NCBI RefSeq assembly: GCF_041886205.1
Contig: NZ_CP169029.1
Length of the DNA stretch: 64,000 bases
Source: Escherichia coli
Lineage (GTDB): Bacteria; Pseudomonadota; Gammaproteobacteria; Enterobacterales; Enterobacteriaceae
Reading direction: 5' to 3' (one strand)
The translations under genes were made by a program, and so were the position numbers. The notes beneath the pieces were generated by a model. That model did no database searches. It worked only from the letters and a program-made list of their open reading frames with translations, and was not told the origin of the DNA. Every line of letters starts with the position of its first letter. Position 1 is the stretch's first letter. Below are positions 10,904 to 53,681 of the stretch, piece after piece.

Positions 10904-11794
10904 TCAGGCTGCCAGATCATCGTTTCCGATGGAAGCATAATAAGCTTTTTCTGCTTCTGCCGGAGGAGTATGGCCCAGCCTTTCCAGCAATCGTCGATTG
11001 TTATACCAGTCCACCCACGTGAGTGTGGCCAGTTCCACTTCTGCACGGTTTTTCCAGCTCTTACGGTGTATTACCTCCGCTTTGTAAAGACCATTGATGC
11101 TCTCCGCCATCGCGTTGTCATACGAGTCGCCTGTACTTCCTGTTGATGCCAGTAATCCGGCTTCCTTAAGCCGCTGTGTGTAGGCCAGCGATACATACTG
11201 AGAACCTTTATCACTGTGATGGACCGTGCCGGACGGTCGACGGGCCCATAACGCCTGCTCCAGTGCATCCAGCACGAATGTCGTTTCCATGGACGATGAG
11301 ACCCGCCACCCCACGATGTATCCGGCAAACACATCAATGATGAACGCCACATAGACGAAGCCCCGCCATGTGCTGACGTAAGTAAAATCAGCCACCCACA
11401 GCTGGTCAGGTCGTTCTGCCACGAACTGACGGTTTACGCGGTCGCCTGCGGCAACGGCTTTCCGGCTGATGGTCGTACGGACCTTTTTACCCCGGAGAAC
11501 ACCGGCAAGTCCCATAACCGCCATGAGACGTGCCACAGTGCATCTGGCCACTCTGATACCTTCCCGTAACAACTGACGCCAGACTTTACGCACACCGTAT
11601 ACCTTGTGATTTTCATCGTATACGCGCTGTATCTCTTTCTTCAGCCAGTCATCGCGCTGCGCACGGGCACTGCGTTTATCCGGATGATGTCGCTGTTGCT
11701 GACAGTGGTAATACGTTGACGGGGCAATATGCAGTTCGCTGCATAGCGGTCCGACCCCGTACTGCTCACGCAGCTTATCCAGCAGTGGCATCAT
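10904..11794 (-). CDS. IS629 transposase OrfB (296 aa, DDE integrase-like)
   Basis: [20 protein letters not shown]...; overlaps orfA consistent with IS3-family programmed frameshift. Confidence 0.9.
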
Positions 11795-12117
11795 TTTTTC
11801 CAGAGGCGGTCGAACTCCGCCTTCGCAAAATAAGCGGAAGCCTGGCGAAGGATATCGTTACTGCGGCGCAGTTCACGATTTTCACGTTCCAGCTCTTTCA
11901 GACGCTGACGTTCAGCGGTGGTGAGCCCTCCATCACCGCCCCCGGTATCCCGCTCATGCTGGCGAACCCAGACACGCAGAGTCTCCGGCGTACAGCCAAT
12001 CTTTGGAGCAATGGAACAAATTGTCGCCCATTGTGAGTCATATTCGCTCTGACTTTCCAGAACCATACGGACTGCCCGTTGACGGACTTCGGGGGAAAAA
12101 CGAGTATTTTTAGTCAT
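11791..12117 (-). CDS. IS629 OrfA (108 aa, HTH)
   Basis: [57 protein letters not shown]... recalled as IS629 OrfA. Confidence 0.9.
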
Positions 12118-12368: not shown

Positions 12369-12445
12369 TGGTGCGTCCGAGTGGACTCGAACCACCGACC
12401 CCCACCATGTCAAGGTGGTGCTCTAACCAACTGAGCTACGGACGC
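12369..12445 (-). tRNA. valW: tRNA-Val (anticodon GAC)
   Basis: Reverse complement GCGTCCGTAGCTCAGTTGGTTAGAGCACCACCTTGACATGGTGGGGGTCGGTGGTTCGAGTCCACTCGGACGCACCA; 77 nt with CCA end. valV/valW name assigned by position only. Confidence 0.9.
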
Positions 12446-12449
12446 AGGA

Positions 12450-12526
12450 TGGTGCGTTCAATTGGACTCGAACCAACGACCCCCACCATGTCAAGGTGGT
12501 GCTCTAACCAACTGAGCTATGAACGC
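12450..12526 (-). tRNA. valV: tRNA-Val (anticodon GAC), second copy
   Basis: Reverse complement GCGTTCATAGCTCAGTTGGTTAGAGCACCACCTTGACATGGTGGGGGTCGTTGGTTCGAGTCCAATTGAACGCACCA; tandem with the first copy, 4-nt spacer. Confidence 0.9.
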
Positions 12527-21117: not shown

Positions 21118-21160
21118 TCCATTTCACTCCAGACCCTAACTTCAGCTCCTGCAAAATCGC

Positions 21161-21178
21161 AAGGTAAACGTTTGCCTT
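21161..21178. promoter_or_regulatory. Candidate PurR operator (autoregulation) in purR leader
   Basis: aaggtaaacgtttgcctt is a near-palindrome resembling the PurR box ACGCAAACGTTTGCGT, about 45 bp upstream of purR start. Confidence 0.5.
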
Positions 21179-21415
21179 TACACACCTTACGCACAACAAA
21201 AGTGTTGCGGTACGCCGGAAAAACGACACGGAGCGTCAGGAAGGGGTCAATGGCCAGTACGCAAATAGTGTAAGCGTGGAATTTTGGCCGATCTTGACGA
21301 AAAGGGGAAGTGGTAAAAACACTTATCATTATAAATGACGGGAGATTTTTTCATCACAGTGTGTAAAAATGCGTAATATCACTTTTTGTGTGGTAATAAA
21401 AAAGGAGAAAACTTG

Positions 21416-21505
21416 ATGAGCACCGACCTTAAATTTTCACTGGTAACAACGATTATCGTCCTCGGTTTGATCGTGGCCGTGGGTTTGACTGCCGCGCTGC
21501 ACTGA
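21416..21505 (+). CDS. ynhF: Small membrane protein YnhF (29 aa)
   Basis: ATG..TGA encoding MSTDLKFSLVTTIIVLGLIVAVGLTAALH preceded by aaggag SD; recalled as a known small protein. Confidence 0.65.
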   Translation: MSTDLKFSLVTTIIVLGLIVAVGLTAALH

Positions 21506-21670
21506 TTTCCTCTCGAGGGAGCGCGTTCTCCCTCGCATCTCCTTCCTGTTTGTTAGCAAAATGGCAAAAGTGTTTTCTCTTTTTGTTATTTTCATTTTTT
21601 TGTGATTGCTGTCATGCTTTCGCCACTTTAATGAATATCGCGTAATGACGCGAAGAGGTGGAGATAAGGC

Positions 21671-40345: not shown

Positions 40346-40430
40346 TTCAACGCCATCAAAACATTGACTTTTATCGCCGTAGCCTTTTCAATAAAGGTCT
40401 TTTGAAGAGTACCAAAAGGTAACGCAAGCA

Positions 40431-40475
40431 ATGAATGCTGCTATTTTCCGCTTCTTTTTTTACTTTAGCACCTGA
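40431..40475 (+). CDS. pheM: pheST leader peptide PheM (14 aa, Phe-rich)
   Basis: atg aat gct gct att ttc cgc ttc ttt ttt tac ttt agc acc tga = [14 protein letters not shown]. Confidence 0.85.
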
Positions 40476-40521
40476 ATCCAGGAGGCTAGCGCGTGAGAAG
40501 AGAAACGGAAAACAGCGCCTG

Positions 40522-40547
40522 AAAGCCTCCCAGTGGAGGCTTTTTTT
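40522..40547 (+). terminator. pheST attenuator terminator
   Basis: aaagcctcc-cagt-ggaggcttttttt hairpin plus U7 downstream of pheM. Confidence 0.7.
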
Positions 40548-40715
40548 GTATGCGCGTTTTGAAAAATAAAAAGCCAGTCTATCAGGCGTAATTGTCGCAG
40601 CCAGTCTGGACACGGCCAGTGCGGAGAAACCGGAGCGTACTTAAGTACGTGAGGATTTCGAGCACTGCCCGGGACCAAAATGGCAAGTAAAATAGCCTGA
40701 TGGGATAGGCTCTAA

Positions 40716-44147: not shown

Positions 44148-44447
44148 ATGGCGCTTACAAAAGCTGAAATGTCAGAATATCTGTTTGATAAGCTTGGGCT
44201 TAGCAAGCGGGATGCCAAAGAACTGGTTGAACTGTTTTTCGAAGAGATCCGTCGCGCTCTGGAAAACGGCGAACAGGTGAAACTCTCTGGTTTTGGTAAC
44301 TTCGATCTGCGTGATAAGAATCAACGCCCGGGACGTAACCCGAAAACGGGCGAGGATATTCCCATTACAGCACGGCGCGTGGTGACCTTCAGACCCGGGC
44401 AGAAGTTAAAAAGCCGGGTCGAAAACGCTTCGCCCAAAGACGAGTAA
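44148..44447 (+). CDS. ihfA: Integration host factor alpha subunit (99 aa)
   Basis: [88 protein letters not shown]... Confidence 0.95.
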
Positions 44448-44460
44448 TCTGATCTAACTA

Positions 44461-44488
44461 AAAAGGCCGCTCTGCGGCCTTTTTTCTT
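44461..44488 (+). terminator. Rho-independent terminator after ihfA
   Basis: aaggccgc-tctg-cggcctt then T-run. Confidence 0.6.
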
Positions 44489-44547
44489 TTCACTGTCGAA
44501 GAGTCACCGTAAAATCAACGCCATGACACTTCAGCAGAACGGATACC

Positions 44548-53544: not shown

Positions 53545-53681
53545 CGTGTAATGGCTGCATGAAATAAACAATAAAATATAAATAACATTATCAGCCTGCT
53601 GACGGCTTGAAGAGAGTCACAGTATCTTGTGCAACATTATTGGAAAGAGTGAGGGGCGAGGTAGCGAAGTGGAAAAATGTT

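Follow-up and report, generated by a model that had tools for sequence, protein, structure and literature searches.

The stretch of Escherichia coli DNA analysed here (the window) is 64 kb long and carries two very small open reading frames (ORFs), ynhF (cydH) and yniD, which are listed with the other features of the window in Table 1. The first, ynhF, runs from an ATG at 21416 to a TGA at 21503-21505 and encodes the 29-residue product MSTDLKFSLVTTIIVLGLIVAVGLTAALH, and the second, yniD, runs on the minus strand from an ATG at 33758 to a TGA at 33653-33651 and encodes the 35-residue product MPTKRFDKKHWKMVVVLLAICGAMLLLRWAAMIWG; both were established by direct reading of the sequence and from the ORF lists. 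A previous sequence-only reading of this DNA had placed YnhF (29 aa) at 21416-21505 and YniD (35 aa) at 33651-33758 on the minus strand, and these coordinates proved exact to the base. It had also credited each gene with a start codon, a plausible ribosome-binding site and a single predicted transmembrane helix, all of which we found: each ATG has a Shine-Dalgarno core 7-8 nt upstream, and each product contains one strongly hydrophobic stretch. The top 19-residue Kyte-Doolittle window spans residues 10-28 of YnhF (2.53) and residues 15-33 of YniD (2.32), and the segment of YniD that is N-terminal of the helix has a net charge of +4, from which an N-in orientation is predicted. The Shine-Dalgarno region of ynhF (21400-21410) shows 93% identity over 81 genomes.

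As had likewise been remarked, neither gene appears in the ORF track as an independent ORF, because a mechanical ORF finder begins the frames further upstream, at a TTG or a GTG; the first-start ORFs are instead 39 aa (from TTG 21386, ynhF) and 72 aa (from GTG 33869, yniD) in length. A minimum length of 60 aa, or a rule that takes the first start after a stop, makes an ORF track miss real small proteins or show them in the wrong form.

Table 1. Coordinates of the two small genes and of associated and other features in the window.
Feature	Position	Strand	Remarks
cydH (ynhF) CDS	21416..21505	+	29 codons + TGA; bd-I single-helix subunit
ynhF Shine-Dalgarno AAGGAG	21402..21407	+	8-nt spacing to ATG
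purR-ynhF spacer	21118..21415	+	298 nt; sequence and length highly conserved
PurR-box-like palindrome GGTAAACGTTTGCC	21163-21176		in purR-ynhF spacer; putative operator
Conserved invariant block TGTGTAAAAATG	21360-21371		in purR-ynhF spacer
GC-rich stem-loop CGAGGGAG-cgcgtt-CTCCCTCG	21514..21535	+	9 nt 3' of ynhF stop
yniD CDS	33651..33758	-	35 codons + TGA; small membrane protein YniD
yniD Shine-Dalgarno core AGGA	33766..33769	-	7-nt spacing to ATG
GC-rich 11-bp hairpin	33607..33631		terminator-like scan site; between convergent ydiY (end 33598) and yniD (end 33651)
ALIL pseudoknot	11720-11836	-	frameshift element of IS3-family transposases
Two tRNA genes	12372-12526	-	near ALIL pseudoknot
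Phe leader	40425-40549		Rfam
STnc540	44389-44547		Rfam
RprA	53680-53787	-	Rfam
rydB	59391-59451		Rfam

Both genes are already known: they are annotated in RefSeq and have curated family models, and cydH also has solved structures. By megablast, the 501-bp region around ynhF matches 5425 of the 5426 complete E. coli genomes and the corresponding 501-bp yniD region 5416 of them. RefSeq records among the matches listed name the genes cydH, 'cytochrome bd-I accessory subunit CydH', and yniD, 'small membrane protein YniD', and in the two records compared the annotated coding sequences correspond base for base to 21416-21505 and 33758-33651, respectively. CydH matches the NCBIfam equivalog NF033411 with 50.2 bits (cut-off 30), residues 1-29 aligning with all 29 positions of the profile, and YniD matches the equivalog NF041491 with 85.7 bits (cut-off 40), residues 2-35 aligning with positions 1-34 of 34. 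The exact peptides are the UniRef representatives YNHF_ECOLI and YNID_ECOLI, and each occurs on at least 1000 contigs. The resemblance to known E. coli small proteins that the sequence-only reading had pointed out is thus borne out by RefSeq, NCBIfam and UniProt alike.

YnhF is also identical over 29/29 residues to chain H of PDB entry 6RKO (E 4.5e-13), and the same sequence is present in 8 PDB entries in total. A search of the PDB with YniD returned no related solved structure, the only matches being to integrin transmembrane helices at chance level (E > 1). Neither peptide matched a family in a Pfam-A scan; PF28032 (YniD-like) is assigned to YniD orthologues in the precomputed annotations of a public collection, and the copy of Pfam-A that we scanned contains no YniD model, as it either predates PF28032 or misses it. 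The cydH of the window does not differ from the known gene (CydH/CydY/YnhF), with which it shares an identical 29-residue product and a position between purR and ydhP; only the wider neighbourhood is rearranged, about 8 kb away. The same is true of yniD, whose 35 residues are identical to those of the known protein and which lies between espL1/arpB-thrS and ydiY-pfkB as usual, with an IS1 element lying ~2 kb upstream, between espL1 and thrS.

To assess conservation of ynhF we used a PurR-anchored set of 80 loci, one per species and from many Enterobacteriaceae genera, which together with the window gave 81 sequences comprising 78 distinct DNAs and 51 distinct proteins. In all 80 PurR loci a YnhF homologue of the full 29 aa is encoded divergently from purR and aligns without gaps, the lowest identity being 48%, and in every locus the arrangement of the window recurs, with an orphan ynhF of ~29 aa and one transmembrane helix between purR and ydhP. 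Each of the 81 sequences has an ATG start and a stop at codon 30 (63 TGA, 18 TAA), with zero indels. Column entropy at the three codon positions is 0.47, 0.29 and 1.27, pooled pN/pS is 0.22 and the Jukes-Cantor dN/dS is about 0.12; the ynhF frame is under purifying selection.

A HMMER search of the complete set of 1.84 billion representative proteins found only 21 relatives of YniD. The six distinct 35-aa orthologues give a pN/pS of 0.19 and a dN/dS of about 0.09; 15, 4 and 25 of the 35 columns vary at the first, second and third codon positions, respectively, and the coding sequence is more conserved than both of its flanks. The comparison with E. albertii yields 16 synonymous changes and a single non-synonymous one. 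Frame-breaking indels were found neither among the 81 ynhF sequences nor among the 6 distinct yniD orthologues. Synteny of thrS-yniD-ydiY-pfkB is kept in the DNA of divergent orthologues, and at most yniD loci an ATG and an SD-like core (AAGGA, GGAG, AGGAAGGA) stand at the aligned Met with similar spacing despite diverged flanks, an E. albertii locus having just a weak GGAA in the SD position. The yniD frame is under purifying selection, with homology that begins at the annotated Met. The reading frame of both genes is thus kept in relatives, the point on which the sequence-only reading had staked its claim, and we conclude with high confidence that cydH and yniD are real small genes, each translated in its own right and both belonging to the Escherichia core genome.

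The ynhF locus also coincides with an RNA family. Rfam RF02081, STnc550 ('Enterobacterial sRNA'), matches 21118-21508 (+) over its full length with 396.1 bits, against a gathering threshold of 48. The locus might on these grounds be mainly a non-coding or dual-function sRNA of ~388 nt that extends from beside the purR start codon as far as the stop of ynhF and in which the ORF would be incidental or of secondary importance, and such a reading also draws on the unusual conservation of the 298-nt spacer in sequence and length across genera and on the other STnc candidates that came from the same Salmonella screen. We consider it very unlikely. Although the covariance model matches at full length, the quarter at its 3' end consists of the cydH coding sequence: the last 93 nt of the consensus are the ynhF SD, ATG, 29 codons and TGA, which are unpaired in Rfam and whose variable letters sit at wobble positions. 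The ORF is under codon-level purifying selection, and the CydH protein is present in a cryo-EM structure and in intact-mass mass spectrometry (MS). Two other candidates of that screen, STnc250 and STnc570, were reclassified as small-ORF mRNAs by its own authors (Sittka 2008), and a search of paper texts found no mention of 'STnc550'.

The spacer itself points in the same direction. In an alignment of 79 Enterobacteriaceae sequences its length is near-constant (423-433 nt for the total extracted region), and it is more conserved than the wobble positions of ynhF. RNAalifold on 55 sequences gave -11.8 kcal/mol with a covariation term of -0.27 kcal/mol, and one of the leader's 14 predicted pairs had a single double change while 13 had none, so that RNA secondary structure with compensatory changes in the STnc550 leader is unsupported by this analysis. 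A structured leader RNA was rejected for this lack of covariation, which places the conservation of the spacer at the level of primary sequence. Such conservation would be expected where the control regions of two divergent genes, here purR and ynhF, overlap, and the purR control region, including the PurR-box-like palindrome, can account for it; the invariant TGTGTAAAAATG block (21360-21371) could be an extended -10 element. Because low-oxygen induction of ynhF has been reported, we searched for an FNR box upstream of the gene; matches to the consensus occur in the window at chance level, and none lies in the promoter region. Scans for sigma-70 promoters and terminators returned nothing on the ynhF strand. 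The stem-loop 3' of the ynhF stop escaped the terminator scan because it has no U-run; most of 55 genomes retain its stem while the loop varies, two loci from two genera having other GC palindromes instead, and it probably either serves as the 3' end or stabilises it, or terminates transcription weakly ahead of ydhP.

STnc550 at this locus is thus probably an mRNA plus shared regulatory DNA rather than a structured sRNA, and the Rfam sRNA family includes the cydH coding sequence. Matches to RNA families at the cydH locus should not be taken to mean that it is non-coding. It seems unlikely, in our estimation, that the leader of the ynhF transcript (the STnc550 RNA) is regulatory, for example by conveying purine or PurR status to the composition of cytochrome bd-I, or else that YniD belongs, unrecognised as CydH was until 2019, to a specific respiratory or transport complex as one of its subunits.

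We also weighed whether the true products are the longer mechanical ORFs of 39 aa (TTG 21386) and 72 aa (GTG 33869). Both extensions are open in the window, and extended versions of YniD, of 50-99 aa, are frequent from public gene callers. For ynhF, however, an in-frame stop lies inside the 30 nt 5' of the ATG in 52 of the 81 sequences, so the 39-aa version is not conserved, and both the intact protein bearing formyl-Met (PMC12529367) and PDB chain H are 29 aa long. Many relatives of YniD bear N-terminal extensions or C-terminal read-throughs that derive from gene callers or from poor, low-coverage contigs, but these extensions are mutually unrelated, wholly different in sequence and length from one orthologue to the next, and homology always begins at M-P-T-K, with the SD directly before it. 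Two metagenome contigs (L094 and L095) have only 5-7 open codons upstream of yniD, and the NCBIfam profiles span 29 and 34 positions. That the longer ORFs are the true products is extremely unlikely, and the 29- and 35-residue proteins stand.

We screened the whole window mechanically for ATG ORFs of 20-50 aa with an SD-like core 4-10 nt upstream and recorded the best 18-residue hydropathy of each. There are 528 ATG ORFs of this size, 28 of which have an SD-like core, and among these 28 the highest hydropathy is that of YnhF (2.62), followed by YniD (2.33) and then by a next candidate at 1.18, a gap that leads to the same two ORFs being picked at any cut-off from 1.4 to 2.2. First-order Markov random sequences of the same composition yield 0.2 such ORFs per window at >= 2.2; YnhF and YniD are far outliers and exceed chance expectation. 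Plentiful as short ORFs are, the idea that these two are chance ORFs resembling membrane peptides is already refuted by the structure match and the conservation of the frames, with the annotation and proteomic evidence agreeing. This simple filter for an ATG, an SD and a hydrophobic helix recovered exactly both of the true small genes in the 64-kb window.

For ynhF, the function of the product has been established by others. YnhF is CydH (also called CydY), the structurally resolved fourth subunit of cytochrome bd-I. The label of small membrane protein that the sequence-only reading had attached to YnhF is correct as far as it goes but outdated, as the protein is a cytochrome bd-I subunit (PDB 6RKO chain H; PMC6853902). 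MS identified YnhF as an unexpected fourth subunit of 3 kDa in the E. coli enzyme (PMC6853902), and the same work reported that its gene is separate from cydABX and lies between ydhP and purR, that the protein is made when oxygen is low and that its formyl-Met is not removed; the association of CydH with CydA was shown on enzyme derived from E. coli BL21 (PMC6853902). CydH sits in the cleft between CydA transmembrane helices 1 and 9, where it shields heme b595 from the membrane, and it closes the O2 entry of the Geobacillus type, O2 reaching heme d through a narrow channel from CydB (PMC6853902, PMC8951039, PMC12648545, PMC8585947). Neither bd-II nor the mycobacterial enzymes have a CydH-like subunit (PMC8951039, PMC8585947). 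Structures from 2025 continue to be described as a CydA-CydB-CydX-CydH heterotetramer (bioRxiv 10.1101/2025.10.10.681541), and top-down mass spectrometry has detected intact, formyl-Met-bearing CydH of 29 aa (PMC12529367).

As CydH of the window is 100% identical to the protein studied by cryo-EM and mass spectrometry, it would be expected to work in the present strain as in the bd-I structures. It would form a 29-residue single-pass helix in the inner membrane that keeps its formyl-Met and is encoded away from cydABX, which lies outside the 64-kb window. Docked in the cleft between helices 1 and 9 of CydA in bd-I, it would shield heme b595 and shut the wide membrane-side O2 entry used in the Geobacillus enzyme, so that O2 would enter via the narrow channel that starts in CydB. 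CydX is encoded within the cyd operon and required for assembly, whereas CydH is the product of an orphan gene and shields a haem. In size, possession of a single transmembrane helix and inner-membrane location CydH and, as predicted, YniD resemble CydX/AppX/CydS, AcrZ, MgtS and KdpF, which are accessory subunits with one helix in inner-membrane complexes, but neither CydH nor YniD has any sequence relationship to these proteins.

YniD is a real protein, as attested by the purifying selection described above and by MS detection in the literature: its detection in minimal medium is credited to Treitz et al. as cited in PMC12529367. Genomic SELEX peaks for minor sigma factors in the thrS/yniD spacer provide weak evidence, and we found no functional study of YniD in the literature. 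The hairpin between the convergent ydiY and yniD genes (33607-33631) is likely a bidirectional terminator shared by the two. Conserved in YniD are the basic N-terminus, a helix with many small residues (AICGA) and the near-invariant C-terminal LLLRWAAM(I/F/L)WG. The protein would be a 35-residue, single-pass inner-membrane protein whose basic N-terminus is predicted to be cytoplasmic (N-in), and its conserved features and strong purifying selection are what one would expect of a helix packed against one particular partner. By analogy with CydH, CydX, AcrZ and MgtS, YniD may bind and tune or stabilise a larger inner-membrane protein, a proposal to which we give not quite an even chance. Two observations count against this analogy: the neighbouring ydiY (DUF481) encodes an outer-membrane-type protein, and adjacency to ydiY is lost in distant 34-aa relatives. 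As a strongly constrained protein, YniD is a reasonable target for partner-finding.

The distant 34-aa YniD-like protein, MAKVIGKKYGKMILVLVLICLGLLLLRWAAMIWG, is encoded in three loci (L086-L088, 3001-3105) in the order fliDST - yedD - DUF6388 - yniD-like - AraC-type regulator, a different context from which it follows that the link to ydiY is not universal. On metagenome contig L095 (2039-2395) a yncL-like gene of 30 aa (PF28073) lies directly upstream of the yniD-like gene, the two forming a tandem pair of small membrane-protein genes.

Since cydH and yniD are both annotated, finding them has little discovery value, and what is worth reporting is limited to the overlap of STnc550 with cydH and a rearrangement junction with a Mu end. 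The two genes are 12 kb apart in the window versus about 67 kb in the E. coli O157:H7 reference PV15-279, and the segment 17000-40000 of the window was not found in one piece in the complete E. coli genomes. The gene order is pykF..mdtK..purR-ynhF..lhr' followed by yniB..yniD..thrS..pheT..ppsA..sufB. Homology to lhr (minus strand, stop at 25242) ends at 29508, about 350 nt before its start, and homology to the region upstream of yniB resumes at ~29646, which places the junction at 29509-29645. The sequence TGAAAAGCGGCG... directly adjoins the truncated lhr, with 29513-29560 reproducing the final 48 bp of the Mu/SfMu right end at 100% identity. After this Mu-type end come about 80 bp of filler that include an R2-like repeat and end in ...TGTCA; searches of E. 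coli genomes, phages, plasmids and metagenome contigs left these 67-80 bp unmatched. Two blocks that normally lie side by side thus come together either in exchanged order or as in a tandem duplication, and a Mu-type end marks the place where they meet. It is the lhr'/yniB join that leaves cydH and yniD 12 kb apart, and it occurs in no other complete E. coli genome. The rearrangement and the IS1 element leave both small genes and their immediate flanks intact.

The interrupted lhr (25242-29508, -) is a pseudogene that lacks ~350 nt of its 5' end, and its frame enters the Mu-type end, where it meets an in-frame stop; because of this stop the mechanical ORF starts at 29378 and is 1378 aa long, compared with 1538 aa for intact lhr. 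A 50-bp Mu R1-R2 end also occurs ~130 bp from the terminus of the record for Proteus phage vB_PmiA_PM1 (PQ065999.1, Autographiviridae), and the sequence after it is partly similar to the junction filler of the window (GGTTAAACACCC...ATAACnGAACGA). The end in the phage record could be a related Mu-like end or an artefact of a MuA-transposase library.

Several other features of the window are of minor interest. The IS1 element lies at ~35700-36500, between espL1 (a 546-aa ORF, 34040-35680) and thrS, an arrangement that is common to only 20 E. coli genomes; it carries a 167-aa ORF of InsB size (35764-36267) and is the source of many multi-copy matches to chromosomes and plasmids. The counterpart of the segment 40000-64000 in E. 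coli XJ5.2 is 99.8% identical but split into 3 pieces over ~40 kb, against 24 kb here, which indicates that some 16 kb are missing between pheT and sufB relative to XJ5.2. In addition to the Rfam features in Table 1, an antisense match to 'HPnc0260' overlaps the tRNA genes at 12372-12526.
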